Source: an uncultured bacterium (GTDB lineage: Bacteria; Patescibacteriota; Minisyncoccia; Phycocordibacterales; CAWITU01). Taken from it: a stretch of 64,000 nucleotides of DNA. The stretch covers positions 4,643-68,642 of the forward strand of contig CAWITU010000001.1 in NCBI GenBank assembly GCA_963839205.1. The letters are read 5' to 3'. The notes under the pieces are model-generated. The model searched no databases and was not told the origin of the DNA. It saw nothing but the letters and a program-made list of their open reading frames with translations. Made by a program: the position numbers and the translations under genes. Below, piece by piece: positions 1,909-60,322 of this stretch (the first letter of the stretch is position 1; each line of letters starts with the position of its first letter).

Positions 1909-2017
1909 ACAATTGTTTCAATGTCGTTGTTTTGGTTTCTGTTTCATCCTTTCGGAATCATCAGTCGGAATACTCATTCCGAGACAGACGGGTCAGTTTT
2001 CACTAACCCCCACACAG

Positions 2018-5269: not shown

Positions 5270-5287
5270 AAATTCTGATAATTGAAA

Positions 5288-5324
5288 GGGCCCGTTTCGC
5301 ATTTGCGAAACGGGCCCTCTTTTT
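5288..5324. terminator. bidirectional terminator, perfect palindrome GGGCCCGTTTCGCA/TGCGAAACGGGCCC
   Basis: It sits between convergent genes, with an A-run upstream and a T-run downstream. Confidence 0.8.
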
Positions 5325-7577: not shown

Positions 7578-8294
7578 ATGCGACTACACCGATTCTATTA
7601 TAAAGCGCAAATAGGGGATAAAAAGGAGATTTTTATTGAAAATAATCCATTAATTCACCAATGGAAGAATGTATTTCGTCTAAAACCAGCTGATAAAGTA
7701 ATCCTTTTTGATAATTCTGGTTTTGAATATTTGGCGGAGATTGTTTTGATAAGCAAAGATGAAACTAGAATTAAGATTTTGGAAGTTAAAGATAAGAAAG
7801 TTGAAAGCAGCGAAAAGCCGGATGTTAGGCTTTTCGCTGCTTTAATAAAGAAAGACAACTTTGAATTAATTATTCAAAAGGCAACCGAGCTCGGGGTTTC
7901 AGAAATTACTCCAATCATTTCAGATAGGAGTGAGAAAAAGGATCTAAATATGGAACGAGCTGAAAAGATTATTATTGAGGCGTCTGAGCAGTCGGGGAGA
8001 GTGCTTTTACCAATATTAAATAAGCCCCAAAAACTAGAAGAGGCGCTAGATGAAATAAATATGAATTTTGTTTCATTTAATCCTGAAGGAGAATCGCTAA
8101 AATCTGGGGATAATCTCAAAGCTCTAAAAGAAAAAGGCCCGATCGGGCTATTGATCGGGCCTGAAGGAGGCTGGAGTGATAAGGAGATTGAATTATTTAA
8201 ATCAAAAAATATTCCTATCTATAATCTCGGCTCTCAAATTCTTCGAGCCGAAACCGCCGCCATCGCTATCTCAGGATTATTTCTGCTCTCCTAG
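7578..8294 (+). CDS. rsmE: 16S rRNA (uracil1498-N3)-methyltransferase
   Basis: It has the MRLHRFY start, KATELGV and a LLIGPEGGWS C-terminal motif. Confidence 0.85.
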   Translation: MRLHRFYYKAQIGDKKEIFIENNPLIHQWKNVFRLKPADKVILFDNSGFEYLAEIVLISKDETRIKILEVKDKKVESSEKPDVRLFAALIKKDNFELIIQKATELGVSEITPIISDRSEKKDLNMERAEKIIIEASEQSGRVLLPILNKPQKLEEALDEINMNFVSFNPEGESLKSGDNLKALKEKGPIGLLIGPEGGWSDKEIELFKSKNIPIYNLGSQILRAETAAIAISGLFLLS

Positions 8295-9305
8295 GAATTT
8301 CAAAACTTTCTCGTTAGTTAACATCATCTCAACATAGATTTTAGCTCTTTCTGGGCTTACGTCTTTGTAGTGTTCAAGAAGATGTTCAGCTTCATGCTCT
8401 ATTTCTTTCTGATCAGCTTCCAATTTTTCCTCGATAGCAATTTGGTTGATGATTAGCTGTAATTTTGCTCTCTTTTCGCCTTCTGGTGCCCATTCCTTTC
8501 GGATTTCCTCTTCTGTCTTTTTGAGCTGTTTTAGATAATCAGCCAAAGTAAATTTCATCTGTTTTAAAGTTTCTTCAAATTGAGACTGAAGTTTACTGAT
8601 TTCACTTTGAATTAAAACTTCTGGAACTTCAATCTTAGTTTCTTTAACAATTTCTTCTAGTATTTCCGCGCGCTTCTTTTCTTTAGCGCGGTATTCTTTT
8701 TCTAATGCCAAGTTTTCTTTAAGTTTTTTCTTAAAGTCTTCTACGTTTTCGAATTCACCAAGAGTTTTAACGAATTCATCGGTAATTTCTGGCAATACTT
8801 CTTCTTTACCTTCCTCAATCTTTGGGGCTCGGCTCTTTTGAACTTCTTTGAGTGACTTTTCTATTTCTTCATCGGTTACTAAAAGATCATCATCTTTTGC
8901 GTTTGATTTGGAAGCAATTTTCTTATAGTTAGGTAGCTTAAATTCAGGAACAATAGCAACATTAATTTTAAATCCAAGCGGATTTCCCCTAGCAAGTTTT
9001 GTTAAGGTAATTTTTGGTTGTCCGGCAACTCTTATATTTTCTCCAATAATGATTTCAGGATAAATCTGTTGAAGAGCAAGTTCTGAAGCCTCTTCCAGAA
9101 TAGCCATATCTCCAATTTTGGAAATAAGAACTGATTCTGGAATCTTACCTCTGCGAAAGCCGTCGAGTTTTAGGTGCTCGCCTAAATGCGCTACGGCTTT
9201 CGGCCAGTAACGCTCTATAACTTCATTGCCAATTTCCGCCTCAATCTCAACTTCGCTTTTAGGAAGTTTAGTTGTTTTTAGAATCGTATAGTTTTTAGTT
9301 TCCAA
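8277..9305 (-). CDS. tig: trigger factor, short form apparently lacking the FKBP/PPIase domain
   Basis: The N-terminal ribosome-binding signature GFRRGKIP is present. The protein is 342 aa, and the segment where the PPIase domain normally lies is only ~25 aa. Confidence 0.8.
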   Translation of the reverse strand: METKNYTILKTTKLPKSEVEIEAEIGNEVIERYWPKAVAHLGEHLKLDGFRRGKIPESVLISKIGDMAILEEASELALQQIYPEIIIGENIRVAGQPKITLTKLARGNPLGFKINVAIVPEFKLPNYKKIASKSNAKDDDLLVTDEEIEKSLKEVQKSRAPKIEEGKEEVLPEITDEFVKTLGEFENVEDFKKKLKENLALEKEYRAKEKKRAEILEEIVKETKIEVPEVLIQSEISKLQSQFEETLKQMKFTLADYLKQLKKTEEEIRKEWAPEGEKRAKLQLIINQIAIEEKLEADQKEIEHEAEHLLEHYKDVSPERAKIYVEMMLTNEKVLKFLGEQK

Positions 9306-11137: not shown

Positions 11138-11295
11138 ATCACCAAATATGCTCATTACATTTTGCGAATCTCGCCGTAGCCTAAAGTAGCCAACATCTTG
11201 GCTCCTCCAGGCTATGGCGATAAGGTAGCCCTCTAGCACCAAACTAAAATCGGACATTGTTCAAATGAACACGTCCACTACAGAAAGATAAAACC
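11138..11295 (+). promoter_or_regulatory. ~158-nt structured 5' leader (possible cis-regulatory RNA)
   Basis: A 10-bp stem CGCCGTAGCC/GGCTATGGCG (11172-11219) encloses hairpin AGCCAA-CATC-TTGGCT. A second hairpin is GGAC.TGTTC-AAAT-GAACA.GTCC. GTAGCC occurs three times. Confidence 0.5.
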
Positions 11296-11955
11296 ATGAA
11301 CTCTGAGCTTATGCTCGATGTTGGACAAGCAAACGAATTGAAGTTGGCATTCCGTCGCGAAGGCGACTGGGACAATGAGAGGATTAAGGCACTCAGCGAA
11401 CGCCGTGGCCTCCTCACCCAAGTCCTCGACGTTCTGGAAGGCCGCGCCCAAATCGTTTCCGTGAAAGGCGAAACCCTTTCGTCTACGATTTCCCCCGCGG
11501 GCATCGTGACGATCTCTGTCGATTACTCGCAAACGCTCAAGCAAATGATTGCTGCAGGTCGCTACGACTGGAATAACAGCGATCTCACTGCTAAGCATTT
11601 TCCGATCAAAGGCAAGGGCGTCGTCGAATTCGAAGCCATGCTCGTCGATCCGACTCGGAACATTTCTTCGGAAGACGCGCTCGACCTGATCAACAGGACC
11701 GATACCGGGAATCCGTGGATGCCGGGGCAGACCGAACACCTCTTGGTATATGGGGCCAAATACCCTAATGCTCAGAGGAATAATCCGATCGTCGCTCTCG
11801 GCTCCGTTGGTAAGGTTGTTGGCCGCCGCGTCGTGCCGTGTCTCGTCGAGGTCGGTTCGCGGCGCGGCCTCGGCCTCGGTTGGTGTGTCAGCGTTTGGGA
11901 TTCCAACTCCCGCTTCCTGGCGGTTCGCAAAGTCTCTCGGCCCTCGGCTTCTTGA
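11296..11955 (+). CDS. hypothetical protein (219 aa), compositionally foreign (about 52% GC in first 120 nt)
   Basis: It has GC-rich third codon positions and its own promoter, leader and terminator. The antisense 231-aa ORF is low-complexity and looks artefactual. No family recognised. The C-terminus carries ..RFLAVRK. Confidence 0.65.
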   Translation: MNSELMLDVGQANELKLAFRREGDWDNERIKALSERRGLLTQVLDVLEGRAQIVSVKGETLSSTISPAGIVTISVDYSQTLKQMIAAGRYDWNNSDLTAKHFPIKGKGVVEFEAMLVDPTRNISSEDALDLINRTDTGNPWMPGQTEHLLVYGAKYPNAQRNNPIVALGSVGKVVGRRVVPCLVEVGSRRGLGLGWCVSVWDSNSRFLAVRKVSRPSAS

Positions 11956-11977
11956 TCCATCGGGCTTGTACATGTGC

Positions 11978-12014
11978 CCCCCAATCTGTTTAATTCAGAT
12001 TGGGGGTTATTTTT
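11978..12014 (+). terminator. rho-independent terminator
   Basis: CCCCCAATCTG-TTTAATT-CAGATTGGGGG is followed by TTATTTTT. Confidence 0.8.
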
Positions 12015-12050
12015 ATATTTTTCATGGTAAAATATAAAGACAATTTCTCT

Positions 12051-13810: not shown

Positions 13811-15016
13811 ATGAAATTTAAAGTTGAAGTTAAAAATGCAGAGGGGCAAGCTATGAATAAAATCATTGATGTATCTGATAGATTTGCTCTTTTCCGCCAA
13901 CTAAAAAAAGACGGTGATACTTTGATTAATTTTCAGGAAGAGAAAAAATCAATCATTGCTAGATTAAACTTTTCATTTGGAGGAATTTCGACTGATGAAA
14001 AAATAAACTTTGCGGCTAATCTGGGAGCGATGTTGGAGTCGGGTCTCACTCTTTCAAGAGCCCTTTCTGTTATTGAGCGACAATCGTCTAATAAAAAATT
14101 TAAGTCGATTGTCGCTTCAATTAACGACGCAATCAGTAAGGGCTCAAATCTTCATGATGCCCTAAAAATTTATCCAGACATCTTTGCTTCTCTGTTTATT
14201 TCGATGGTTCGCGTCGGCGAAGAGTCTGGAAGTTTGGCTAATTCTTTAAAAGCCGTGGCCCTCCAGATGGAAAAAGCTCATACTTTAACTAAGAAAGTTC
14301 GAGGGGCAATGATTTATCCAGGAGTGGTTTTCTCAGTGATGGTCGTTGTCGGTATTCTTCTTTTTACTTTTGTAGTACCAAGTCTTCTTGATACATTTAA
14401 ACAATTAAATGCCCCACTTCCTTTCAGTACCGAAATCATTATCGCTTTAAGTAATTTTTTCCAAAATGATTACGCTATTGGAATTCCGGCAATTCTCATC
14501 GTTATTGGTTTAATTTATTATTTTTCGAGAACGAGGATTGGGAGAAGATTTTTTGATTGGGTGTTTCTCCATTTGCCAACAATTGGGAATTTAGTTAAAG
14601 AAACCAACTCTGCTCGAACTGCGAGGACATTATCATCCCTTCTTACTTCCGGAGTTGATATGGTCTTAGCTGTTTCTATAACTGAAGAAGTTCTACAAAA
14701 TTCTTACTACAAAAATATTTTGAAAGAAGTTGGCAAAAGAGTCGAAAAAGGCGAGCCGATGGCTTCAATTTTTTTAAGTAATGAAAAACTTTATCCAGCT
14801 TTTGTATCAGAAATGATTAGTGTTGGAGAGGAGACGGGTAAACTTTCTGAAATGCTTCTTCGGGTGGCGACATATTATGAAGCTGAAGTGGATGAATCTA
14901 CCAAAGATATCTCTACGATTATTGAACCAGTACTCATGGTTGTAATAGGTTGCTGTGTCGGTTTTTTTGCGGTATCTATGATTACTCCACTTTATACGGT
15001 GATGAATAATATTTAG
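13811..15016 (+). CDS. pilC: type IV pilus / T2SS platform protein (GspF/PilC family)
   Basis: Two GspF-type repeats are present (LSRALSVIERQ.., MISVGEETGKLSEMLLRVATYYE), with polytopic TM segments. Confidence 0.9.
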   Translation: MKFKVEVKNAEGQAMNKIIDVSDRFALFRQLKKDGDTLINFQEEKKSIIARLNFSFGGISTDEKINFAANLGAMLESGLTLSRALSVIERQSSNKKFKSIVASINDAISKGSNLHDALKIYPDIFASLFISMVRVGEESGSLANSLKAVALQMEKAHTLTKKVRGAMIYPGVVFSVMVVVGILLFTFVVPSLLDTFKQLNAPLPFSTEIIIALSNFFQNDYAIGIPAILIVIGLIYYFSRTRIGRRFFDWVFLHLPTIGNLVKETNSARTARTLSSLLTSGVDMVLAVSITEEVLQNSYYKNILKEVGKRVEKGEPMASIFLSNEKLYPAFVSEMISVGEETGKLSEMLLRVATYYEAEVDESTKDISTIIEPVLMVVIGCCVGFFAVSMITPLYTVMNNI

Positions 15017-16505: not shown

Positions 16506-17643
16506 ATGAAAAATAATTTTAAAAACAAAAAAAGAGGACAAGTCATCATGATAGTTGTTGTCTTCTTTTTACTCAGTTCAATCTTGATTGTCATGAGTAT
16601 AATTTCGCCACTTTTAAGACATATTGAGGCAACGCATGAATTTATCAGAGACAAACAAAGTTATTTTACAGCGGAAGCTTTGAATGAAGATGTTTTATAC
16701 CGCTTAAATAATAGTTTACCTGTCCCGAACAGTGTGATTTTGTCTTTAGTTCAAAGCGTGGCAACGGCTACTATATCAAATCTCTCAACCGGGTTAGATC
16801 AAATTAAGACTCTAGGAAGTTTTGATTTATTGTCCAGGAATATTACTAGCGTCAATTCTAAATGGAGCTATTGGAAATTTTAGTTATGGAATTCAAGCAG
16901 GAAGTGGAGGATTTAATATTAGTGGAGGCTCAACTGTAAATGGAGATATTTATTCAGTTGGTGATACTAAGGCAAGTGGAGGAGGCACAATTACGGGCAC
17001 AGCATATTGTAATATGAGTAGTGATAGTAGTGTTTCTTGTAATACCTCAAGAAGTTCTTCTGTGCTCAGCCTTCCTTTTTCAACAAGCAGTATTACTTCT
17101 ATCCAAAATCAAGCAACAGCAGGGACAACTTATACGGGAAACTATAATGTTGGTTACGCTGGAGCAACAATTGGCCCTGAAAAAATTACTGGTAATCTGG
17201 TTGTAAATGGCGGAGGGACGTTAACGTTGTCAGGTGTGGTTTGGGTTCAAGGTTCGCTTTCGGTTAGTAATGGTGGGCAAATTAAGTTGGCTTCTTCTTA
17301 CGGAAGTTCAAGTGGCGTGATTCTAGCTAACGGTCTTGTAAGCTTAAGTGGTGGGAGTTTAAGTGGTTCTAGTCAAAGTGGAAGTTATTTAACGATTATA
17401 ACAACAGCGACCGGAACGAATGCTTTAGGTGTTACTGGTGGAGCTGGAGCGGTAATTCTCGTTGCTCAAAATGGTACAGCAACCCTTTCTGGTGGGGTAA
17501 ATGCTAATCAAGTTACAGCTCAGACAATTTCAATTTCTGGTGGAAGTACGATTACATACTCTAACGGGCTCGCAAATTTAATCGTTTCAGATGGCCCGAC
17601 TAGCTTTTGGAATGTGAACAGTTGGTCGGAGACTTCAAATTAG
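16506..17643 (+). CDS. pilus-associated protein: N-terminal TM anchor plus Gly/Ser-rich beta-helix-like region; probably one gene with a frameshift near 16822-16880
   Basis: The 16506 ORF has the TM segment RGQVIMIVVVFFLLSSILIVMSII. The 16822 ORF lacks any signal and continues with GGSTVNGDIYS.., VVNGGGTLTLSG.. repeats. The frames overlap by 60 nt. Confidence 0.5.
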
Positions 17644-17660
17644 CGTGTTATACTTTTTAT

Positions 17661-18413
17661 ATGAGTAAGATCATCATTGCTAATTGGAAGATGAATCCGG
17701 AGACTCTGCTTCAAGCTAAAAATATTTTCCAATCAATAAAGGGTTATTCAAAAAATACTAAGTCAAAAATAGTTGTTTGTCCTCCATATATTTATATTAA
17801 AGATTTAATTGAACTTTCAAAAAAAACAAAAAAAATAGTTGTTGGAGCTCAAGATGTTTTTTTTGAAGGAGACGGACCCTTTACTGGGGAGGTAAGTGCA
17901 CCAATGCTTAAAAGTGTTGGTGCTAAGTATGTAATTGTGGGGCATTCGGAAAGGCGCGCACTCGGGGAGACGTCGTCCGACGTCTCCCGAAAAGTGCGCG
18001 CCGCCCTCTCCTTCGACATCTCTCCTATTCTTTGTATTGGTGAATCAGCTAGGGATGAAGATGGTGAGTACCTGAAGGATTTAAGAGAAATGCTTAAGTT
18101 GTCTCTTTTAAATATTGGAGAAAAAAATATTTCAAAGCTTATTATTGCTTACGAACCAATTTGGACCATAGGTGACGGACATTTTGCTATGACACCACAT
18201 GACATCCATCAGACAGCCGTCTTTATTAAAAAAGAACTAACAACCATTTTTGGAGAAAAGATTGGAAGAAAAATTCCAATACTGTATGGAGGATCTGTTG
18301 ATCCAAAAAATGCCGAAACAATCGTTAAAGAAAGTCATGTCAATGGTCTTCTTGTTGGTCGAGAAAGTCTCAAGGCCGAAAATTTTGGTCTTATAATAAA
18401 ATCAGTTAAGTAA
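17661..18413 (+). CDS. tpiA: triose-phosphate isomerase
   Basis: It has IIANWKMN, VGHSERR, CIGE, AYEPIWTIG and YGGSV motifs. Confidence 0.95.
   Translation: MSKIIIANWKMNPETLLQAKNIFQSIKGYSKNTKSKIVVCPPYIYIKDLIELSKKTKKIVVGAQDVFFEGDGPFTGEVSAPMLKSVGAKYVIVGHSERRALGETSSDVSRKVRAALSFDISPILCIGESARDEDGEYLKDLREMLKLSLLNIGEKNISKLIIAYEPIWTIGDGHFAMTPHDIHQTAVFIKKELTTIFGEKIGRKIPILYGGSVDPKNAETIVKESHVNGLLVGRESLKAENFGLIIKSVK
17953..18002. repeat. 50-nt GC-rich nested palindrome inside tpiA coding sequence
   Basis: GGCGCGCACT-CGGGGAGACGTCG-TC-CGACGTCTCCCG-AAA-AGTGCGCGCC. The outer 10-bp arms are perfect and the inner 12-bp arms have one bulge. It encodes RRALGETSSDVSRKVRAA. Confidence 0.9.
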
Positions 18414-20016: not shown

Positions 20017-21753
20017 ATGTCGGCAATGGCAAAATATTCTGTAAGAAAAGAGGCCTCACCGGACCTTGTAAAACACCTTCTTTTTCATCGTGGGGTTAGT
20101 GAAGAGGGTGAGATACTGAAGTTCCTTTCGCCTGACTATGTTAAGCATACCCATAATCCATTTTTGATGAAAGGAATAGCGGAGGCCGTCCAAAGGACGG
20201 CCTCCGCTATCGTCTCCGGCGAAAAAATTGCCATCTGGAGTGACTATGATGCCGACGGCATTCCAGGAGCGGTAGTTCTACATGATTTTTTTAAAAAAAT
20301 TGGCTATGAACATTTTCAAAATTACATTCCTAATAGGGCCGTGGAAGGGTTTGGCTTAAATATTGATGGCGTGAAAGAACTTTCTCAATCTGGCGTCAAA
20401 TTAATTATTACTATTGATTGTGGGATCTCTGATGTTAAAGAAGTTGAACAGGCAAATACTTTGGGAATTAATGTAATTATTACTGATCACCACTTGCCAG
20501 GTGAAAAATTGCCAAAAGCTTTTGCGATTATAAATCCAAAACAATCTGGTTGTGAGTATCCAGAAAAAATGCTCTGTGGTTCGGGGGTTATTTTTAAATT
20601 CGTTCAAGCACTTTTAAAAGATCCCGAAATTCAAAAGTATATTTCAGGGAAGGGGATTGAAATAAAAGAAGGGTGGGAAAAATGGTTATTAGATATGGTT
20701 GGTATTGCCACACTTTCAGATATGGTGCCCCTTGTCGGTGAGAATCGAATGTTTGCGTACTTCGGTTTAATGGTGCTACGCAAATCTCCGAGGGTTGGTC
20801 TCTCAAAGCTCCTGCGTAAGTTAAAAATTTCTCAAAAGGATGTCACTGAAGATGATATTGGTTTTATGATATCTCCCAGAATCAATGCTGCTTCTCGCAT
20901 GGGCGTTCCGTCCGATGCTTTTAAATTACTTTCAACAAGTGACGAAGGTGAGGCTGGAGCCTTGGCTGACCATTTAGATAAAATAAATAATGAGAGAAAG
21001 GGAACGGTGGCTGCAATGGTCAAAGAGATTAGGAAGAAAATGGAATCACGTCTAATTAGATCAACTATTGTCATGGGTAATCCTTCCTGGAGACCAACAT
21101 TACTAGGTTTGGCGGCTAACACTTTGATGAGGGAACATGCTCGACCAGTATTTCTTTGGGGAAGGGAGGGCGGAGAAATTATTAAAGGTTCTTGTCGGTC
21201 AGATGGTAGTGTAAGTGTTATGGACATTATGCAATCAACTCCGGAGGGAACCTTTTTGGATTTCGGTGGGCACGCTGCTTCTGGAGGGTTTTCTGTTTCA
21301 AATGAAAAAATTCATTTTCTGGAAGAAGCACTTGAATCAGCTTATCAAAAGGTGATTGAAGGGAAACCAAATATCGCAGATACAGAAATTATGATTGATA
21401 AAGAAATTTCTTTGAATGATGTGTCCTGGAATATGTATGGTCAGCTTGAAAAGTTAGCACCATTTGGAGAAGGGAATCCAAAACCGCTTTTTCTTATTTC
21501 AAAGTCCAAAGTTCAATCCGCAAAAATGTTTGGTAAAGAAAATAATCATTTTGAACTAACTCTTGTAAATTCATCAGGGAAAATTATTAAAGGAATTTGT
21601 TTCTTTGTTCAAGATTCTCCCTTTATTTCAAAAATTAACCCAGATAATCTTGCGACTCTTTCTGACACCTCGATTAATATCATTGCTTCTCTTGAGAAAA
21701 GTATGTTTCGAAATTATCCTGAGCTAAGATTGCGAATTGTTGATATTATTTAA
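20017..21753 (+). CDS. recJ: single-stranded-DNA-specific exonuclease RecJ
   Basis: It has DHH motifs SDYDADG, ITIDCG and ITDHH, plus the DHHA1 GGHAASGG. Confidence 0.9.
   Translation: MSAMAKYSVRKEASPDLVKHLLFHRGVSEEGEILKFLSPDYVKHTHNPFLMKGIAEAVQRTASAIVSGEKIAIWSDYDADGIPGAVVLHDFFKKIGYEHFQNYIPNRAVEGFGLNIDGVKELSQSGVKLIITIDCGISDVKEVEQANTLGINVIITDHHLPGEKLPKAFAIINPKQSGCEYPEKMLCGSGVIFKFVQALLKDPEIQKYISGKGIEIKEGWEKWLLDMVGIATLSDMVPLVGENRMFAYFGLMVLRKSPRVGLSKLLRKLKISQKDVTEDDIGFMISPRINAASRMGVPSDAFKLLSTSDEGEAGALADHLDKINNERKGTVAAMVKEIRKKMESRLIRSTIVMGNPSWRPTLLGLAANTLMREHARPVFLWGREGGEIIKGSCRSDGSVSVMDIMQSTPEGTFLDFGGHAASGGFSVSNEKIHFLEEALESAYQKVIEGKPNIADTEIMIDKEISLNDVSWNMYGQLEKLAPFGEGNPKPLFLISKSKVQSAKMFGKENNHFELTLVNSSGKIIKGICFFVQDSPFISKINPDNLATLSDTSINIIASLEKSMFRNYPELRLRIVDII
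20178..20208. repeat. perfect 14-bp-stem GC-rich palindrome inside recJ
   Basis: AGCGGAGGCCGTCC-AAA-GGACGGCCTCCGCT. It encodes AEAVQRTASA. Confidence 0.95.
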
Positions 21754-21757
21754 ATAT

Positions 21758-22279
21758 ATGAAAGATAAAATTATTATTTTTACAGATGGTTCTTCAAAAG
21801 GAAATCCTGGTCCAGGTGGATGGGGGTCAATCATTGTCCATGATGGTGAAGTTGTTGAGCTTGGAGGAGGTGATCCACACACAACTAATAATAAAATGGA
21901 ACTTACTGCGGCTATTGAAGCACTGAAATATTTGAGTGGTTCGACTTCGCTCACCACAAACTTACGTTTGGAAATCCATACTGATTCGGAATATGTTGGT
22001 AAGGGAATGAAAGAATGGATTTTTTCCTGGCAAAGAAATGGATGGAGGACAGCCACTAAGAAACCAGTTTTGAATAAGGAATTATGGCAAGAACTATCAG
22101 AACTTTCTTCCGGAAAAGAGATTACTTGGACCTATGTCGCAGGCCATATTGGCATTCCGGCCAATGAGAGATGTGACGAAATCGCTAATGCTTTTGCTGG
22201 AGGAGAGCCGTCAACTCTTTTTAAAGGACGGCTCTCAAACTATAAAGTAGATATAAAAAATCTTTCAGGGTTTCTTTAG
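21758..22279 (+). CDS. rnhA: ribonuclease HI
   Basis: It has FTDGSSKGNPGPGGWG, TNNKMEL, HTDSEYV and CDEIANA. Confidence 0.9.
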   Translation: MKDKIIIFTDGSSKGNPGPGGWGSIIVHDGEVVELGGGDPHTTNNKMELTAAIEALKYLSGSTSLTTNLRLEIHTDSEYVGKGMKEWIFSWQRNGWRTATKKPVLNKELWQELSELSSGKEITWTYVAGHIGIPANERCDEIANAFAGGEPSTLFKGRLSNYKVDIKNLSGFL

Positions 22280-22308: not shown

Positions 22309-23940
22309 GTGTTTAATCACGAGATGATCTTTTGTATCGGATTTCTATTTGGTGTTTTTGTTTCATCTCTCTACCCGATATCTATTTTTGTTTCTATTGT
22401 TTTTGTAATCTCTTTAGTTAGCTTATTTGTAGTATTTTCATCTTTAAATTTTAATAAGACTAAATTAATTAGCTTATTTTTTCTGGCATTATTTTTAGGA
22501 TTTTTAAGAATTGGAATTTTTAATTACTATTCGGTGCCTGATAAACCTCTTCAGCAACTTGTTAATCAAAATATTTCTGGAAAAGCATTGATTACAGATG
22601 AGCCGGATAGGAGAGATACCACCATACGACTAACGGCTAAGGTTAAATCGATTAAAGGAGAAGGTGGCCAAATTAATATTAAAAACGGTGGAGTTATCTT
22701 TGTGACCGACTTAAATTCAATAATATCTTATGGTGACGAAGTCTCATTTTCTGGAAAGCTTCTACCGATTGAAGATTTTCAAACTGATTCTGATAGGATT
22801 TTTCATTATCAAAAATTTATGGAAAGGAGTGGTATTTATTATGATTTATACAATCCCAAATTAACTGTTATTTCTAGAGATAATGGTTTTTATCTACGTG
22901 CTTGGCTATTTAATCTAAAAGAGAATTTTCTAAAACAACTTTCTTCTGTGATTCCAAGGCCGGAGGTATTGCTGTTAGGGGGGCTATTGCTTGGCACCAA
23001 ACATTCTTTAGGAAATGATTTGCTGGCTGATTTTCAAAAGACGGGTGTCATTCATATGGTGGTAATTTCTGGGTATAACATTACTGTCGTGGTTGAGGCC
23101 ATGAGTGCAGTCTTTTCTTTCCTGCCCTTCCTTGCCAGAATTTTCTCTTCTTCGGTTGGTGTTATTCTTTTTGTTCTGATGACTGGCTTTTCTTCAGCGT
23201 CACTTCGAGCCGGTATTATGGTTTTAATTGCTCTATTAGGTAAAGCGGTTAGCAGAAAATATGATGTGGTTCGAGCGATCGTAATTTCAGCTTTTATTTT
23301 AACCATTCTTAGCCCGTTGGTTATAGTTTATGATCCGTCATTTCAATTAAGTTTCTTAGCCTCACTAGCTTTAATTTTTGTTTCGCCGATTATCGAGAAT
23401 TATTTTAAATTTGTACCAGAGTTTTTGAAACTCCAAGAGACAGTTATCGCAACGATATCAGTTATGATTTTTGTATTACCACTTTTGATTTATATGAATG
23501 GAGTTGTGTCATTTCTCTCAATTTTTGTGAATATTTTAGTTTTGTTTCCGGTGCCGTATGTGATGTTTCTCGGTTTTATAACTGGAGTAATTTCTTTTGT
23601 ATTTCCATTTCTAGCAATTCCTACTGGATTTATTTCTTATCTCATATTGCACTATATTATTTTTGTAGTTGAAACCGCCGCCCATTTGAAGTGGGCGGCG
23701 GCAACTGTTCCGGCTTTTCCGGCTTGGAATTTACTTGTTGTTTATATTTTCTATGCTTTCATTTTGTGGAAGTTTCACCGTGGCAAAGTCACAATACTTC
23801 CGGAAAAGCCTACTCTTCAAACCTCTTACCAATTAACTCCCAATCTAAATTATCAAAAACAGCCTCAACATATTTCTTCTTGTCAGCTGGAACATAATCA
23901 AAAAGATAAGAATGCTCCCACATATCCAATGCAAAAATAA
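22309..23940 (+). CDS. comEC: ComEC/Rec2 DNA internalisation channel (competence domain only)
   Basis: The protein is polytopic and carries the competence-domain signature GVIHMVVISGYNITVV. The 3' end overlaps the convergent SOD-like gene by 131 nt. Confidence 0.8.
   Translation: MFNHEMIFCIGFLFGVFVSSLYPISIFVSIVFVISLVSLFVVFSSLNFNKTKLISLFFLALFLGFLRIGIFNYYSVPDKPLQQLVNQNISGKALITDEPDRRDTTIRLTAKVKSIKGEGGQINIKNGGVIFVTDLNSIISYGDEVSFSGKLLPIEDFQTDSDRIFHYQKFMERSGIYYDLYNPKLTVISRDNGFYLRAWLFNLKENFLKQLSSVIPRPEVLLLGGLLLGTKHSLGNDLLADFQKTGVIHMVVISGYNITVVVEAMSAVFSFLPFLARIFSSSVGVILFVLMTGFSSASLRAGIMVLIALLGKAVSRKYDVVRAIVISAFILTILSPLVIVYDPSFQLSFLASLALIFVSPIIENYFKFVPEFLKLQETVIATISVMIFVLPLLIYMNGVVSFLSIFVNILVLFPVPYVMFLGFITGVISFVFPFLAIPTGFISYLILHYIIFVVETAAHLKWAAATVPAFPAWNLLVVYIFYAFILWKFHRGKVTILPEKPTLQTSYQLTPNLNYQKQPQHISSCQLEHNQKDKNAPTYPMQK
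23675..23701. repeat. perfect 10-bp-stem GC palindrome inside comEC
   Basis: CCGCCGCCCA-TTTGAAG-TGGGCGGCGG. Confidence 0.85.
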
Positions 23941-24403
23941 CTTTTAGTCCGGTTAAGTGTCCTAAGTGTTGTTCGTCAGACCAATTGTTTAATAGTCTTT
24001 TCTCAACTGGATCATAATAGAGAATGGCCCAGCCAATGCCCCGAGTGAGAGCTAATGCCTTGAATCGTGTTAACCAAGCATCAATTGAACCCCATTCGGC
24101 GACGATGGCTTTGCCTAGAGCTGTTTCCTCCGCTTCCGCCATAGCTTCAGGTGTAGTTGTCCCGAATTGTTCAAAATAGTATTCATGATTTCTCATACCA
24201 TCAAATTCAAAAGAAAAACGTCTTTGCATCTCTGAAATTTCAAGCGCATTTTTTTCAGAATCCTTGGAAAAGTCCTTAATATGGTCAAGAATTAAATTAG
24301 TATTCTTAACATACCCAGCGTAAAGCTTAAGATGTTCATCAATTGTCTTTTGCGAAATTCCTTTTAGGGCCCCGATATTAAATTTTTTTTCAATATAACT
24401 CAT
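23810..24403 (-). CDS. Fe/Mn superoxide dismutase family protein (divergent N-terminal metal motif)
   Basis: The C-terminal DMWEHSYLFDY and central NHEYYF match SOD. Where the HH.KHH motif is expected, the sequence reads EHLKLY. Confidence 0.7.
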   Translation of the reverse strand: MSYIEKKFNIGALKGISQKTIDEHLKLYAGYVKNTNLILDHIKDFSKDSEKNALEISEMQRRFSFEFDGMRNHEYYFEQFGTTTPEAMAEAEETALGKAIVAEWGSIDAWLTRFKALALTRGIGWAILYYDPVEKRLLNNWSDEQHLGHLTGLKVIFALDMWEHSYLFDYVPADKKKYVEAVFDNLDWELIGKRFEE

Positions 24404-31621: not shown

Positions 31622-32203
31622 ATGGATTCACCTGTTGATATTTCTAATAAGAAAATTCTTTTCATTGGAGAAAAGAAGGAAGAATGTGAGTTGATTGAGA
31701 AGCAATTTGGTCAGGCAGTCTTTGCCGTCAGACATTTTGCTGGTAATGAATTTGTGAAGAGGCCGAGTGATTATCTGATAATTGATGCAAGCCGTAGACT
31801 CCAAATTGTCTACCCAGCCAAAAATGGGAAAAAGAAGGACGAAAGGGTAACTGCATTCAAAAAAACTTTCAGACACCAGGTTCACAACGCTTTGCTTAAT
31901 CGCATGGCGAAAAAAGTTGCTATCATAGTCGAGCACGGGGAATATTGGGCAACTGTCTTGGTTGCAGATCGACGTTTTCCAAAGTTGCGGTCAAAATTAG
32001 TTAGTTGCTGTTCGTATTATTACAAGGGACCGCAAGATGAAAAGGAGGAACACCTTAAGTTCGTAAATTCGTTTGAAAATGGTTGGACGGTTAAGGTCGG
32101 AAACCTTTTCTCTGAAAAGTTACCTCGCAGACTGACAATTAGGGCTGAAATCGATTACGGTCTAATTATCAGTGAAATAGAAAAGGAAAAAACAATGAAA
32201 TAG
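31622..32203 (+). CDS. hypothetical protein (193 aa) inserted between fusA and tuf
   Basis: It has the strong RBS AAGGAGGTGA 7 nt upstream of the ATG and its own terminator. No family recognised. Confidence 0.6.
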   Translation: MDSPVDISNKKILFIGEKKEECELIEKQFGQAVFAVRHFAGNEFVKRPSDYLIIDASRRLQIVYPAKNGKKKDERVTAFKKTFRHQVHNALLNRMAKKVAIIVEHGEYWATVLVADRRFPKLRSKLVSCCSYYYKGPQDEKEEHLKFVNSFENGWTVKVGNLFSEKLPRRLTIRAEIDYGLIISEIEKEKTMK

Positions 32204-32237
32204 CCCCGCGACATAATGAAAATGTCGCGGGGCTTTT
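32202..32237. terminator. bidirectional terminator, 13-bp perfect stem AGCCCCGCGACAT/ATGTCGCGGGGCT
   Basis: It sits between the convergent 31622 ORF and the pheA-like gene. A T-run follows on the plus strand. Confidence 0.8.
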
Positions 32238-37422: not shown

Positions 37423-37435
37423 TCTAAACGAAAAA

Positions 37436-37463
37436 CAGCTGGCGTTGCGCCAGCTGTTTTTTT
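37436..37463 (+). terminator. rho-independent terminator directly after rplB
   Basis: CAGCTGGCG-TTG-CGCCAGCTG is followed by TTTTTTT. Confidence 0.8.
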
Positions 37464-38006: not shown

Positions 38007-38046
38007 CAATTATTGCCCCGCGGTCCGTCCTTTGGACGCCGCGGGG
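38007..38046 (+). terminator. rho-independent terminator GCCCCGCGG..CCGCGGGGC
   Basis: A long GC stem with a TTT loop is followed by TTTGTTT. Confidence 0.8.
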
Positions 38047-38072
38047 CCTTTGTTTATATAGTTTCTCTATTA

Positions 38073-41486: not shown

Positions 41487-41499
41487 TCAATAATGAAAA

Positions 41500-41528
41500 G
41501 GGCCTCCGCCTTAGGCGGAGGCCCTTTT
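41500..41528 (+). terminator. rho-independent terminator GGGCCTCCGCC-TTA-GGCGGAGGCCC
   Basis: A perfect 11-bp stem is followed by TTTT. Confidence 0.85.
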
Positions 41529-41549
41529 CATATTTGCTATAATAGTGCC

Positions 41550-42074
41550 ATGAGAAAATTTGAAGCAATTGTAACCATCGTTTTAATAGTTATTGTCTTA
41601 GTTGCGGCCCTATTTTGGGAACACCGCAGTGTAAATGCCCCAGTTATGCCAATTGTTAAAGGTTTAACTTTGTCTGATATTCAAAATACCTCTTATGAGG
41701 GAACCGAACTTATAAATGGTAGTTCAACCCAAGATTTCTTTCATTATGATTTAAGTAGTTATGCTTTAGGAGACTTGAATAGAGATGGTCTTCAGGATGC
41801 AGCTGTAGTTGTTACTGTAACCGGCGCCGATTCATCCGATTTCCTATACGTAGTAATGGATTTGAATGGTATTGCTTCATCCACTCCTGTTTCTATCCCC
41901 ATGAGACAAGGAGAGTCCTATGCTAGAAATATAAAAGTAGATTCAATCAGTAACGGTATTATTACTCTAGACCTTGATATTGCTTCACCTACCGATCCTC
42001 ATTGTTGCCCTTCAATCCAAGCAACAAGGGAATACGCATTTGTCGGAAATACCCTCAGGGAAGTAATCCAATAG
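41550..42074 (+). CDS. membrane-anchored hypothetical protein inserted between rplE and rpsN (leaderless start)
   Basis: TGcTATAAT (41535-41543) lies 6 nt before the ATG. It has the N-terminal TM segment AIVTIVLIVIVLVAALF, a DLNRDGLQD Ca-binding/FG-GAP-like motif and host-like GC. Confidence 0.6.
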   Translation: MRKFEAIVTIVLIVIVLVAALFWEHRSVNAPVMPIVKGLTLSDIQNTSYEGTELINGSSTQDFFHYDLSSYALGDLNRDGLQDAAVVVTVTGADSSDFLYVVMDLNGIASSTPVSIPMRQGESYARNIKVDSISNGIITLDLDIASPTDPHCCPSIQATREYAFVGNTLREVIQ

Positions 42075-42178: not shown

Positions 42179-42364
42179 ATGGCCAAGACATCAGTAAGAG
42201 CTAGAGCTCTAAAAAAGCCAAAATTTGCCTCCCGCGTCGTCCGACGTTGTTTTAGATGCGCTAGAAAGCGTGGATATATGAGGGATTTTGATATGTGTCG
42301 TATTTGTTTTAGAGAAGCTGCTAACGAAGGCCGAATTCCAGGCATCAAAAAATCATCATGGTAA
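42179..42364 (+). CDS. rpsN: 30S ribosomal protein S14, zinc-ribbon (type Z) form
   Basis: 61 aa with CFRC..CRIC. Confidence 0.93.
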   Translation: MAKTSVRARALKKPKFASRVVRRCFRCARKRGYMRDFDMCRICFREAANEGRIPGIKKSSW

Positions 42365-48059: not shown

Positions 48060-50837
48060 ATGGAAGCGGTCCCATCACAATTTAATTCTCCTGAACAAGA
48101 GCTGGCGTACCTACGCGAGCAGGTGGCAAGTAAGGAACTTGAACTTAAGAAGAATAAAGAAGAGGCTTATCGACCGAATGTTGTTAATGAAACGATTCAG
48201 GAATACAAGAAACAGATTCCGGAAGAAGTTTTGAGCAAAGATCTCCGTTTGAGTCACATGCATAAGGAAGCAATAGTCTTAGATCTAAAACCTGAACCAC
48301 ATGATAGACAGATTGAAGAGCTAATCGGTCTGCTTCAAGAAAAAGGGGTTTTAAATACAATTGCTATTATCGAAAGAATGAACAATCCTCATCTAGAGGA
48401 CGATTTTCATCGTTTCTTGGTTCAATACATTAAACAAGGCTTACCAGCCCCAGGTCTTAAAGAGGGAGGTACTGAAGCAAAAGCTCTTGCTTATACACTT
48501 TACGAAGTTTCTTTGCCTGATATTAAAAAAGAGGAAGAAGAAAAGGAATTAAAACTTTTGGTTTCTTCAATGGAACAATTTTATTCTGGAATGCTTTCTG
48601 TAGAAATTGATTCAAAGAGAAGAAGTTACATGTCGATTGAACTTGCTGTTTCTGCTCATGATGAGGAGACGGTTTTTTATGCAGCGGTGCCAGATGATAA
48701 GAAGAATCTTTTTGAGAAACAAGTCTTGTCCATTTTTCCTCACGCCAAACTGATTGAGAAGAAAGATGATTACAATATTTTCAACGAAGATGGCGTTTCG
48801 GTCGGGTCATACCTGACCCAATCCCGAAACGCCATCTATCCAATCAAGACCTACGACCAATTTGATTATGATCCTTTGAATGTTGTTCTAAATACTTTTT
48901 CTAAACTCGATAGAGAGCACGAGGGGGCCTCAATTCAGCTTATATTCAGCCCTGCCGGCGATTATTATGTTAGCCGATACAAACACGCACTTAAGGAAAT
49001 TACGAGTGGCGTGAAGCTAAAAAAAGCTATAGATATTCGCCATACTGTCTTCGGGGAGTTTATGAAGACGGGTAAAGAAATCATGTCAGAAACTGTTAAA
49101 GATATGTTTAAACCTTCCGGTAAGAAAGGTGAAGTTGAAAAAGAAAAACAACAGCCGATTGACGAATCAGCGGTTGAAAACATCAAGAAAAAAGTTGAGA
49201 GTCCAATTGTTGATGCCAATATTAGAATTGTGGTATCAGCCCAAAATCAAATTAGGGCCAATCAAGTTCTTTCCGATCTTGAATCAGCTTTCAATCAATT
49301 TGATAACCCACTTGGTAACGCTATTAAATTTGAAAGACAAACAAAAGGAAATCTTTCCAAATTATTTAAAGATTATTCGTATAGACTATTTTCAGATGAA
49401 CATAAATTGCCACTAAGTATTAAGGAGGTGACAACGATGATTCATTTTCCTGGAGAAGCGATTAAATCATCACCCAATCTTAAGAGATCTAAAGCTGGTA
49501 CCTCGGCGGCGCCACTCAATCTTTCTCATGATGGAATTTTGCTTGGTTACAATAAAGACCGAAATATTGAGACTAAGATTTTCATGGGCAAGGAAGACCG
49601 TTTGCGCCATTTTTATACAATCGGTCAAACTGGAACTGGTAAGACAAACTTCCTGAAAAATATGATTATTCAGGACATTCAAAATGGGGACGGTGTTTGT
49701 ATGATTGACCCACACGGCTCTGATATTCAAGATGTTTTGGCTAACATTCCAAAAGAACGTTACGAAGATGTTATTTATTTTGACCCAAGCTACACCGGAC
49801 GTCCGATGGCGCTTAACATGCTTGAGTATGATCCAGCTTTTCCAGAGCAAAAGACCTTCGTTGTTAACGAATTATTTAATATTTTCCAAAAATTGTACGG
49901 TGGAAACCCTGAATCAATGGGTCCAATGTTTGAACAGTATTTTAGAAATTCCACCATGCTTGTTATTGAGGACCCAGAAACAGGGAATACTCTGCTTGAT
50001 GTCTCACGTGTAATGTCTAACAAATCTTTTAGAGATTTGAAACTTTCAAGATGTAAAAATCCAATTGTTGTTCAGTTCTGGAAAGAGATTGCTGAGAAGG
50101 CTGGGGGAGAAAGTTCACTTGCCAACATTGTTCCATATATCACTAGCAAATTTGATATATTCTTGGCTAACGACATCATGCGTCCGATTGTCGCTCAAGA
50201 ACATTCGTCCTTTAATTTCCGAGACATTATGGATAATAAGAAAATTCTTTTGGTCAATTTGGCCAAAGGTAGGCTTGGCGATATTAACGCCAATCTTCTC
50301 GGTCTAATTTTGGTTGGTAAAATTCTAATGGCAGCTCTTTCAAGAGTTGACTCATTCGGTAAAGATTTACCGCCTTTCTATTTGTACATCGATGAATTCC
50401 AAAATATTACGACTAATTCGATTTCCACGATTCTGTCTGAGGCTCGAAAGTATAAATTAAGTTTGACCATTGCCCACCAATTCATTGCCCAGCTTGAAGA
50501 CGATATTAGAGATTCAGTTTTTGGAAACGTCGGTTCAATTGCTTCATTCCGCGTCGGCGCCGAAGACGCGGAATATTTAGAGAAACAATTTGATCCAGTT
50601 TTTACTCGTTCAGATATTATGAATTTGGATAATTACAACGCTTACATAAAAATGCTCTCTGGCGGTGCTCCGGTTCGTCCATTCAACATTGTCACTCTCG
50701 TAGCTCCAAGAGGTAATCCAGACATCATTGCTAATCTAAAAGAACTTTCTTATCTAAAGTTTGGTAAAGACAAGGACGAAGTCCAAGAAACTATTATGGA
50801 GAAGTACAAAAAAGCCCCAGTTTCTGATAGAATCTAG
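48060..50837 (+). CDS. large P-loop ATPase of the VirD4/TraD/HerA-FtsK-like type (coupling-protein-like) with ~480-aa unknown N-terminal half
   Basis: Walker A GQTGTGKTNF, Walker B-like FYLYIDEFQN, later TIAHQF. Confidence 0.65.
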   Translation: MEAVPSQFNSPEQELAYLREQVASKELELKKNKEEAYRPNVVNETIQEYKKQIPEEVLSKDLRLSHMHKEAIVLDLKPEPHDRQIEELIGLLQEKGVLNTIAIIERMNNPHLEDDFHRFLVQYIKQGLPAPGLKEGGTEAKALAYTLYEVSLPDIKKEEEEKELKLLVSSMEQFYSGMLSVEIDSKRRSYMSIELAVSAHDEETVFYAAVPDDKKNLFEKQVLSIFPHAKLIEKKDDYNIFNEDGVSVGSYLTQSRNAIYPIKTYDQFDYDPLNVVLNTFSKLDREHEGASIQLIFSPAGDYYVSRYKHALKEITSGVKLKKAIDIRHTVFGEFMKTGKEIMSETVKDMFKPSGKKGEVEKEKQQPIDESAVENIKKKVESPIVDANIRIVVSAQNQIRANQVLSDLESAFNQFDNPLGNAIKFERQTKGNLSKLFKDYSYRLFSDEHKLPLSIKEVTTMIHFPGEAIKSSPNLKRSKAGTSAAPLNLSHDGILLGYNKDRNIETKIFMGKEDRLRHFYTIGQTGTGKTNFLKNMIIQDIQNGDGVCMIDPHGSDIQDVLANIPKERYEDVIYFDPSYTGRPMALNMLEYDPAFPEQKTFVVNELFNIFQKLYGGNPESMGPMFEQYFRNSTMLVIEDPETGNTLLDVSRVMSNKSFRDLKLSRCKNPIVVQFWKEIAEKAGGESSLANIVPYITSKFDIFLANDIMRPIVAQEHSSFNFRDIMDNKKILLVNLAKGRLGDINANLLGLILVGKILMAALSRVDSFGKDLPPFYLYIDEFQNITTNSISTILSEARKYKLSLTIAHQFIAQLEDDIRDSVFGNVGSIASFRVGAEDAEYLEKQFDPVFTRSDIMNLDNYNAYIKMLSGGAPVRPFNIVTLVAPRGNPDIIANLKELSYLKFGKDKDEVQETIMEKYKKAPVSDRI
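48789..48836. repeat. 48-nt nested GC-rich palindrome inside the ATPase gene
   Basis: GATGGCGTTTCGG (13 bp, perfect) .. GGGTCA-TACC-TGACCC .. CCGAAACGCCATC. Confidence 0.95.
50546..50574. repeat. perfect 10-bp-stem palindrome inside the ATPase gene
   Basis: ATTCCGCGTC-GGCGCCGAA-GACGCGGAAT. Confidence 0.85.
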
Positions 50838-51559: not shown

Positions 51560-51732
51560 AGGTTACTCGGGATATAATCTAGATTAATTTTATAGTCAGG
51601 GATCTCAAGTCATTCTAGACCTTGGTCCAGATTGCAGAGAACCCACCTAGCCTAAAGCTGGGTCTATATCTTCGAGTAATCGAATCAGTGCGCCCCCGCG
51701 AAGCTCCGAAGGAGCGAAGTGGGGGCGCTTTG
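51560..51732 (+). ncRNA. candidate structured small RNA (~170 nt)
   Basis: A TATAAT at 51548-51553 precedes it. A 16/17-bp closing helix GGTTACTCGGGATATA (51561-51576) / TATATCTTCGAGTAATC (51665-51681) includes G-U pairs. A terminal stem-loop GCGCCCCC..GCTCC-GAA-GGAGC..GGGGGCGC lies at 51690-51728. No ORF is present. Confidence 0.35.
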
Positions 51733-51745
51733 ATATAATAACCAT

Positions 51746-52162
51746 ATGAAAAGCGCACCTTTATTTAAATTACTCTTCAGTCTCTTGGTGGTTATTGCCT
51801 CTTTACATATTTTGTCTAGTTTCTTGTATTTATATTGGTCAATTCAATGGATTCATTTAATTATTCATTTCTTAAGCGGAATATTAGTTAGTCTTTCGGC
51901 TTTGTGTTTAATTTATGTTTCTGAATATGATTTTTTAAGAAAGAGGATTTCTGAAGCGCCGATAGCGACGTTCTTTGTCGCTATCGGCGCTTCACTTGTT
52001 GCAGGTATTCTCTGGGAGGTCTTTGAGCTAACTTTTGGTATAACTTTTCTTTCTGATCAGAACTACTTATCCCAAAATGGCTCCGAAGTAATTGCTGCTC
52101 TGTCTGGGGGACTCATTGGTTGGGCTTATTTTTCTTACAAACACCTCAATCATCGTGTATAA
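51746..52162 (+). CDS. hypothetical integral membrane protein (leaderless start)
   Basis: TGaTATAAT (51731-51739) lies 6 nt before the ATG. The protein has four hydrophobic segments. Confidence 0.6.
   Translation: MKSAPLFKLLFSLLVVIASLHILSSFLYLYWSIQWIHLIIHFLSGILVSLSALCLIYVSEYDFLRKRISEAPIATFFVAIGASLVAGILWEVFELTFGITFLSDQNYLSQNGSEVIAALSGGLIGWAYFSYKHLNHRV
51953..51993. repeat. perfect 17-bp-stem GC-rich palindrome inside the membrane-protein gene
   Basis: GAAGCGCCGATAGCGAC-GTTCTTT-GTCGCTATCGGCGCTTC. It encodes EAPIATFFVAIGAS. Confidence 0.95.
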
Positions 52163-54182: not shown

Positions 54183-54205
54183 TACAAAAAGTTAACATAG
54201 AAAAA

Positions 54206-54234
54206 GGGCCCCAGCCTAAGGCTGGGGCCCTTTT
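54206..54234. terminator. bidirectional terminator GGGCCCCAGCC-TAA-GGCTGGGGCCC
   Basis: Perfect 11-bp stem flanked by an A-run and a T-run, between convergent genes. Confidence 0.85.
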
Positions 54235-60284: not shown

Positions 60285-60322
60285 AAAAAATCAGCCCCGC
60301 GCATATAGAAATGCGCGGGGCT
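60285..60322 (-). terminator. rho-independent terminator AGCCCCGCGCAT/ATGCGCGGGGCT
   Basis: Perfect 12-bp stem, followed on the minus strand by GATTTTTT. Confidence 0.85.

Follow-up and report, generated by a model that had tools for sequence, protein, structure and literature searches.

The DNA studied here is a 64-kb stretch (hereafter the window) of contig CAWITU010000001.1, positions 4,643 to 68,642 (assembly GCA_963839205.1), from an uncultured bacterium of the Patescibacteria with a window GC content of 38.7%. Best matches of its TpiA, RsmE, and VirD4-like proteins were found in Patescibacteria, mostly in metagenome-assembled genomes (MAGs) of Parcubacteria/Paceibacteria. Within tpiA, the gene for triose-phosphate isomerase, lies a nested palindrome at 17953-18002 that reads GGCGCGCACT-CG-GGGAGACGTCG-tc-CGACGTCTCCC-GAAA-AGTGCGCGCC and is translated in frame as RRALGETSSDVSRKVRAA. 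Its outer stem (GGCGCGCACT/AGTGCGCGCC) consists of 10 perfect Watson-Crick base pairs and its inner stem (GGGAGACGTCG/CGACGTCTCCC) of 11 perfect base pairs with a TC loop, and a 2x4 internal loop separates the two. This 50-nt element had been reported in an initial annotation made from the letters alone, and its sequence is exactly as described there. Folding energies of the palindrome are -43.4 kcal/mol (RNA) and -25.2 kcal/mol (DNA), with z = -5.5 and 0 shuffles as stable. When 170 nt around the hairpin were folded, the z-score was owed to the palindrome itself, and a long-range pairing of 8 bp was within chance.

The tpiA palindrome takes the place of coding sequence and adds none, as had been proposed from its spacing between conserved motifs. 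Alignment with 12 TpiA relatives is gapless at the site, the length is the same, and the invariant residues R97, R98, G101, E102, and K110 are all retained. In the closest relative (70% amino acid identity; loci L001 to L003), tpiA is equal in length and the site carries no palindrome. The element sits in an island of elevated GC content at third codon positions (GC3) at 17937-18029, where GC3 reaches up to 0.92 versus a gene mean of 0.29. This island makes use of rare GC-ending codons and extends 27 nt past the palindrome. The 25-nt core of the element had no exact match among 241 million metagenome records, and an exact-protein look-up of TpiA returned no match.

The tpiA element is not alone. 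A scan of the whole window for hairpins with a perfect stem of 10 bp or more and a loop no longer than 10 nt yielded 17, of which seven or eight are intergenic, carry A/T tracts, and look like terminators. The initial annotation had estimated that such hairpins should be far rarer by chance, and this estimate was borne out by a null model in which synonymous codons were shuffled within each gene, preserving protein and codon usage. The scan found 9 coding hairpins, versus 0.7 in the shuffles (maximum, 3); for GC-rich coding hairpins the numbers were 8 versus 0.135, and for coding stems of at least 13 bp 4 versus 0.015. Coding windows of 50 nt folding below -25 kcal/mol numbered 27, with 0 in the shuffles. 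Under a stricter margin at the ends of open reading frames (ORFs), 7 hairpins remained versus 0.2 expected (Poisson p about 2e-9). The palindromes are real and far above chance. Direct repeats of equal size were not in excess in coding DNA (0 versus 0.4 expected), and the hairpins showed no positional pattern within genes. Rfam and tRNA scans detected nothing at the elements; the whole window had 0 Rfam matches at the gathering score and 0 tRNA genes, despite a large ribosomal-protein operon.

The excess is limited to perfect stems and is of an all-or-nothing kind. For GC-rich 10-bp arms in coding DNA, the perfect class held 9 stems where 0.2 were expected, stems with one mismatch numbered 0 (1.8 expected), those with two mismatches 27 (23 expected), and those with three 85 (91 expected). 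The GC-rich long stems contain zero G-U pairs. Stems including G-U pairs on the sense strand were in excess only as extensions of perfect stems, and a test for selection at the RNA level, based on G-U pairs and sense/antisense asymmetry, gave no independent signal.

Comparison with orthologues (53 to 76% amino acid identity) covered the eight sites with short loops. No insertion was found at seven of them, namely those in TpiA, RecJ, RsmE (two), ComEC, and the VirD4-like protein (two), and at the DUF2238 site (51952-51994) the window has 3 additional amino acids relative to one relative, L085. Because these seven sites show no indel versus orthologues, the alignments indicate that the elements overwrite coding sequence and are not inserted. 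RecJ aligns with 7 relatives with no indel across the hairpin, and the start of recJ on the same contig as the closest tpiA relative is identical in length and lacks the palindrome. At this site, the window and the sister lineage agree locally in only about 53% of nucleotides, down from about 80%, and the window's copy is richer in GC. Five ComEC relatives align across the hairpin without indels. In RsmE (11 relatives), both hairpins fall at gap-free or ordinary linker positions; their right arms encode conserved motifs (LFAAL at 7804-7843 and IGP of GPEGG at 8135-8162), and their left arms encode variable residues, at 7804-7843 a variable linker. The DUF2238-like gene is real, with 647 homologues and an orthologue in L085.

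The VirD4-like gene has two syntenic orthologues (L085 and L086; 74 to 76% amino acid identity) with no indel at either site. The peptide FRVGAEDAE encoded at 50546-50574 is identical in the window, L085, and L086, so the palindrome, in which the window uses the codons TTC-CGC-GTC ... GAC-GCG-GAA, is built purely from synonymous choices. At 48789-48836 the amino acids are nearly identical in L085 and L086 and the outer stem depends on synonymous choices; thus this palindrome, too, is mostly made by synonymous codons. Apart from the 3 additional amino acids at the DUF2238 site, the orthologous sites are imperfect quasi-palindromes of equal length. L085 and L086 carry perfect coding palindromes of their own, both in adk and elsewhere in the VirD4-like gene, at codons where the window is nonpalindromic. 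According to these alignments, the palindromes are lineage-specific replacements with turnover, in agreement with one of the outcomes envisaged in the initial annotation, the 70% relative lacking both the tpiA and the recJ palindrome. A pair of loci that are 85% identical (L125 and L124) offers an example of concerted evolution of two arms: an AT-rich coding inverted repeat is perfect in L125 (10527-10555) and has one mismatch in L124 (762-861), the difference being a compensatory change from an A-T to a G-C pair plus one corrected mismatch.

Altogether, the window contains about 11 coding elements, eight with short loops and three with longer spacers (Table 1). The five further elements of the initial annotation and the weaker one at 8135-8162 are all real, with coordinates right to 1 to 2 nt; that list had overlooked 7804-7843 as well as 9154-9202, 14076-14116, and 22203-22236. 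In a self-comparison of the window, each palindrome matched only itself, apart from two similar terminators, and arms of different elements had words of 9 nt at most in common; these copy-number tests cover 64 kb of the genome. The statement that the elements share no sequence therefore holds with respect to repeats, there being no family, but not in full, as a short CGTC...GACG apex motif recurs.

Table 1. Coding palindromes of the window, the host gene of the nested element, and matching contigs of the independent Logan assembly
Feature	Position	Host gene or strand	Remarks
tpiA, triose-phosphate isomerase (PF00121)	17664-18413	+	Host of 17953-18002
tpiA palindrome, outer arms	17953-17962 / 17993-18002	tpiA	
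tpiA palindrome, inner arms	17965-17975 / 17978-17988	tpiA	
16-bp perfect palindrome	7804-7843	rsmE, 7578-8294 (+)	Identical in L084; terminator-like on minus strand
10-bp perfect palindrome	8135-8162	rsmE	Predicted minus-strand terminator; L084
Nested inverted repeat, 10-bp perfect outer arms	9154-9202	tig	
11-bp perfect inverted repeat, 19-nt spacer	14076-14116	ORF 13811-15016	Identical in L149
16-bp perfect palindrome, loop AAA	20176-20210	recJ, 20017-21753	Codons 54-65, IAEAVQRTASAI; identical in L148
10-bp perfect inverted repeat, 14-nt spacer	22203-22236	RNase H gene, 21737-22279	Within L148
10-bp perfect palindrome, 90% GC	23675-23701	comEC, 22309-23940	Within L148
Nested palindrome, 13-bp outer and 6-bp inner perfect stems	48789-48836	VirD4/TraG-like DUF8128 gene, 48060-50837	
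10-bp perfect palindrome	50546-50574	VirD4/TraG-like DUF8128 gene	
18-bp perfect palindrome	51952-51994	DUF2238-like membrane protein gene, 51746-52162	Identical in L147
Logan contig L084	5683-8348		100% identity
Logan contig L149	14057-16618		99.9%; two mismatches, outside palindromes
Logan contig L148	18304-25375		100% identity
Logan contig L147	51712-53198		100% identity

Logan contigs, an independent assembly of run ERR10755936, reproduce six of the coding palindromes exactly. The tpiA palindrome is outside all Logan contigs retrieved, in the gap 16619-18303, and is supported by the submitted assembly and by a coding content that makes perfect sense. Contig L147 ends inside a strong imperfect hairpin (51684-51734; -34.8 kcal/mol) upstream of the DUF2238 gene, which suggests that de Bruijn-graph assembly of this organism is interrupted at palindromes. 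The differences between L149 and the window are single nucleotides at 14177 and 16571, and the same organism is present in a second run, ERR11571142 (L150). Strain-level variation is present and could be mined for palindrome polymorphism.

Coding palindromes are not restricted to this genome. In 62 Parcubacteria loci (690 kb of coding DNA), 20 perfect inverted repeats with GC-rich arms were observed versus 3.2 expected, and 19 with AT-rich arms versus 6. Eleven other loci of the Candidate Phyla Radiation (CPR; 126 kb coding) had 11 versus 0.75 and 3 versus 0.25, respectively, and 68 non-CPR loci (962 kb coding) had 17 versus 7.5 and 6 versus 6.25. A set of 80 loci mostly from unrelated bacteria, obtained by a contig search with a TpiA alignment whose patterns were too general, served only as controls. 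These counts show that Patescibacteria are generally enriched for coding palindromes. The window has the highest rate, above the Parcubacteria average (p about 1e-3). Among all phyla, inverted-repeat density was reported to be highest in Campbellbacteria and Kaiserbacteria, both of which belong to the CPR (PMC13155455).

A subset of the elements has features of intrinsic terminators. On the minus strand, the 10-bp GC-rich stem at 8135-8162 is followed by UUUUUCUUUUAG and was flagged as an intrinsic terminator by a consensus scan. It is situated 115 nt past the stop codon of the convergent tig gene (trigger factor; 8277-9305, minus strand). Because tig and rsmE converge, overlapping by 18 nt, there is no intergenic space for a tig terminator. 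On this sequence evidence, 8135-8162 is predicted to be a canonical intrinsic terminator for tig. The sole terminator-like signal for tig lies inside the rsmE coding sequence, and one of its arms encodes part of GPEGG. A similar arrangement exists in comEC, where the hairpin at 23675-23701, with a weak U tract, is located about 110 nt past the stop codon of the convergent and overlapping gene for an Fe/Mn-superoxide dismutase (SOD; 23810-24403, minus strand) and possibly represents another embedded terminator. Judged by stem and U tract, 8135-8162 qualified as an intrinsic terminator on the minus strand, and 23675-23701 and 7804-7843 did so weakly. Across the CPR loci, 14 of the 56 perfect inverted repeats in coding DNA lie at most 400 nt downstream of the stop codon of a convergent gene, a zone comprising 8.8% of coding positions (p = 3e-4). 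Thus, about a quarter of the class are plausibly terminators inside the coding sequence of a neighbor.

This explanation was considered for the whole class and rejected, as the palindromes in tpiA, recJ, the VirD4-like gene, and the DUF2238 gene have neither a U tract on either strand nor a convergent neighbor; no function is indicated for them. In the tpiA palindrome, located in the middle of the gene, only 2 to 3 T follow the stem within 8 nt on either strand. Selection for intragenic RNA hairpins, one of the options raised in the initial annotation, is therefore likely for a subset, in the form of antisense-strand terminators of convergent genes, and does not stand for signals acting in the mRNA of the host gene.

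The intergenic terminator-like hairpins are also perfect, with stems of 12 to 19 bp (5287-5318, 32202-32234, 37431-37461, 41493-41531, 54202-54234, and 60293-60322). Several lie between an A run and a T run and would be bidirectional. Two of them, 41496-41528 and 54202-54234, are 88% alike. The ORF at 41493-42074 would begin within a hairpin, and its true start is probably located further downstream.

Another recurrent feature concerns the apex of the hairpins. In 5 of the 17 GC-rich perfect inverted repeats of the window (those in tpiA and recJ and at 22203, 50546, and 14076), the left arm has CGTC at its loop end; the corresponding figures are 4 of 97 for other CPR loci and 0 of 80 for controls. 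The element in tig has CGTC at its apex as well. CGTC is not overrepresented in the window at large (128 versus 132 expected). This feature was found post hoc; its uncorrected p of 5e-4 becomes borderline after correction for 256 tetramers, and we list the recurrence of the CGTC...GACG apex as unexplained rather than as a finding. Hairpin apices of this form are situated at 17971, 20187, 22209, 50552, 14084, 38026, and 42235. The apex CGTCC-N3-GGACG is common to the recJ palindrome and the intergenic hairpin at 38013-38050, and a second copy of the tpiA apex 12-mer CGTCGTCCGACG is located at 42235.

The elements are coding palindromes, that is, codons of conserved genes rewritten to perfect Watson-Crick inverted repeats with length and frame kept. 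We consider it probable, with modest confidence, that they are quasi-palindromes perfected by short-range template switching or arm conversion and filtered by the requirements of the protein; both the mechanism and its dependence on stem stability are what we infer from the pattern. Template switching is suggested because the stems are perfect or nothing, exclusively Watson-Crick, inverted only, of unchanged length, lineage-specific, and unshared in sequence. Among the options listed in the initial annotation, template-switch "quasipalindrome correction" best fits this signature. Template switching has been invoked to explain why bacteria have too many perfect short inverted repeats (Lavi et al. 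2018, PMC5941160), and it makes perfect hairpins in a single event (Monttinen and Loytynoja 2022, PMC8794818). For the mitochondrial coding palindromes of Nematomorpha, active arm conversion was proposed on the strength of the same all-or-nothing signature (Mikhailov et al. 2019, PMC6649704). The process would start from quasi-palindromes dictated by the peptide, such as F-R-V...D-A-E or D-G-V-S...S-R-N-A-I, which might then be homogenized at the DNA level by template switching or arm conversion. It would be most effective on stable GC-rich stems, which would be created and then held perfect, AT-rich stems decaying, and purifying selection on the protein would retain only synonymous or conservative outcomes. 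The elements would thus largely be lineage-specific by-products of Patescibacteria DNA replication or repair that turn over, a minority being co-opted or kept as terminators for convergent genes that lack intergenic space.

Several observations speak against template switching or arm conversion in this simple form. AT-rich arms in the window showed no excess in any mismatch class. Among position-3/position-3 pairs free to vary, 16 of 21 are G·C, although A·T would be equally synonymous and the GC3 of the genome is 0.32 (p = 4e-5). Such a strong GC bias is not predicted by unbiased template switching. Together, the G·C preference and the lack of enrichment of AT-rich arms indicate that stem stability matters; either conversion is limited to stable stems or favors G·C, or stability is selected. 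The arm-ancestry comparison had to rely on relatives with 70 to 76% amino acid identity, in which synonymous sites are saturated and both arms have changed. At 50546, changes were needed in both arms (CGN to CGC and GCN to GCG) while the peptide was kept, so that one unidirectional copying event is insufficient and two or more events, or copying in both directions, must be assumed. Moreover, the CGTC...GACG apex and the enrichment near convergent genes point to function or sequence-specific recognition for some members.

Some of these points lend weight to the possibility, in our view a good deal less probable than perfection by template switching, that the hairpins are functional and selected within coding sequences, where they could terminate or pause transcription (especially antisense or convergent transcription), protect or process mRNA, or bind a factor. 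The textbook terminator geometry behind tig, the same geometry of the comEC hairpin relative to the SOD gene, and the concentration of CPR inverted repeats near convergent stops all agree with it, as do the G·C preference at free synonymous pairs, which together with the use of rare GC-ending codons implies that stem stability matters, and the CGTC...GACG apex. However, the hairpins in tpiA, recJ, the VirD4-like gene, and the DUF2238 gene, lacking U tracts, lie outside convergent zones; position within genes follows no pattern; and the nearest relatives do not conserve these hairpins but have different ones elsewhere. Under selection for RNA structure with coding constraint, G-U pairs and an excess of near-perfect stems would be expected, and neither is present; nor do the loops follow a common stable-tetraloop pattern. 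It is tempting to speculate that CPR bacteria possess an active drive toward hairpin homogenization that depends on stability or favors G·C, or that stable hairpins are deliberately written into genes, possibly to be recognized through CGTC...GACG, but we regard this as rather unlikely.

The remaining alternatives are less probable still. Import of GC-rich patches from a relative of higher GC content by transformation or gene conversion, with coincidental palindromy, would agree with the extension of the tpiA GC3 island 27 nt beyond the palindrome, with the local drop in identity to the sister lineage to about 53%, and with the presence of ComEC in the window. It leaves palindromy, perfection, and the all-or-nothing excess unaccounted for, GC3 islands are no commoner in the window than in shuffles (36 versus 33.4), the differences at 50546 are confined to the arms and all synonymous, and the tpiA core is missing from the metagenome records; we therefore view import as quite improbable. 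An artefact of assembly, library preparation, or polishing, as considered in the initial annotation, might be suspected since the window stems from a MAG, the tpiA palindrome falls in a Logan gap, and one Logan contig breaks inside another hairpin. It is nevertheless very unlikely in view of the Logan contigs, three identical to the window and L149 at 99.9% over six coding palindromes, of the frame kept in every palindrome, with both arms encoding family-typical residues, and of comparable elements in many MAGs that are unrelated and stem from other projects. Least credible are in-frame palindromic mobile elements similar to Rickettsia palindromic elements (RPEs), mitochondrial GC clusters, or repetitive extragenic palindromic (REP) sequences. 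This idea, also from the initial annotation, draws on the GC-rich palindromes being in an AT-rich genome and on the recurrence of CGTC, with which one REP superfamily is also tagged (PMC3733652). It is refuted by the unchanged length at seven of eight sites and the lack of a second copy in the window; in addition, the arms code for motifs conserved in the host protein, the tpiA core has no metagenome match, and CGTC is here at the loop end of the arm, whereas the REP tag is at the foot.

RPEs, yeast mitochondrial GC clusters, and byp elements are inserted, repeated, and related sequences that add residues or are bypassed. The elements described here resemble them as palindromes within ORFs of AT-rich genomes, but nothing is inserted and nothing repeated. 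REP sequences and bacterial interspersed mosaic elements (BIMEs) are extragenic GC-rich palindromes of 20 to 40 bp present in many copies, with a GTAG or CGTC tag at the stem foot (PMC3733652); a RAYT transposase is associated with them. Several elements of the window likewise contain CGTC; unlike REP/BIME, they are intragenic and unique and have CGTC at the loop end. A GC-rich perfect stem and a short loop are shared with intrinsic terminators. U tracts of such terminators occur at the intergenic hairpins 5287, 32202, 41493, 54202, and 60293 and at the coding element 8135-8162 on the minus strand, whereas the tpiA palindrome and most other coding palindromes are located mid-gene without a U tract on either strand.

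Close parallels are quasi-palindrome correction and the Nematomorpha palindromes. In common with quasi-palindrome correction according to the Ripley model (PMC5941160, PMC8794818), perfect short inverted repeats exceed the null, orthologous sites are imperfect, multinucleotide differences are confined to the repeat, length is constant, and no sequence is shared. The repeats of the window differ in their length of 10 to 22 bp, in their strong GC bias, and in their location within conserved housekeeping genes of a genome that is AT-rich; changes in both arms are required at one or more sites, and the mechanism is one that we infer. Similar to the coding palindromes of Nematomorpha (PMC6649704), they are perfect inverted repeats in conserved genes with both arms translated and length unchanged, scattered, gained and lost between species, all or nothing in identity, and reliant on degenerate codon positions. 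However, they are chromosomal and bacterial, their arms measure 10 to 22 bp (up to 284 bp in Nematomorpha) and are GC-rich relative to the genome, and some occupy terminator positions of convergent genes. An excess of perfect inverted repeats and coding palindromes is thus of an already known kind. According to the literature searched, what is new at the gene level is the presence of GC-rich, all-or-nothing palindromes of 10 to 22 bp in conserved CPR housekeeping genes, together with their G·C preference at free synonymous pairs and their partial use as terminators.

Other observations in the window concern regions away from the palindromes. Three GC-rich islands (801-2250, 11251-12050, and 60351-61000) have a GC content of 0.54 to 0.62. 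Both of their strands bear long ORFs, whose GC3 is about 0.6, and the islands belong to no family of Pfam or Rfam; they may represent foreign DNA or structured RNAs that lack annotation. A stretch at the margin of one island (1936-1990, minus strand) resembles a type III hammerhead ribozyme (RF00008) with 35.9 bits, less than the gathering score of 48.5 (E-value, 1.9e-5 in a 2.5-kb search). In relatives, the ribosomal-protein/secY-adk-map operon holds toxin-antitoxin-like genes (HicB-like and PemK) and small ORFs (2585-2809 and 8054-8443 in L085; 2140-2403 in L086); the corresponding place in the window is taken by the lipoprotein-like ORF of 193 amino acids at 41493-42074.

Since an inverted repeat within a gene has to encode an acceptable peptide in both of its arms, such repeats should seldom occur there. 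Here, a streamlined AT-rich CPR genome tolerates or actively generates about one perfect GC-rich palindrome of 10 to 22 bp per 5 kb of coding DNA, in hosts that include enzymes as conserved as TpiA, RecJ, and RsmE. This provides a gene-level picture behind the record inverted-repeat density of CPR phyla (PMC13155455) and, from bacteria, a counterpart to the coding palindromes known in hairworm mitochondria. In practical terms, palindromic sites may fragment de Bruijn-graph assemblies, and tests of selection that rely on codon usage can be misled by them. The all-or-nothing stems, the G·C preference, and the embedded terminators at convergent overlaps offer testable handles on the cause. If it is mutational, the palindromes would reflect a peculiarity of CPR replication or repair; if it is functional, they would represent an unrecognized way to place regulatory structure inside genes. 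Should a hairpin drive or the deliberate writing of stable hairpins prove true, such stem-loops could be terminators of overlapping convergent genes, barriers to antisense transcription, or factor-binding sites, and would constitute a lineage-wide layer of genome organization rather than mutational debris.

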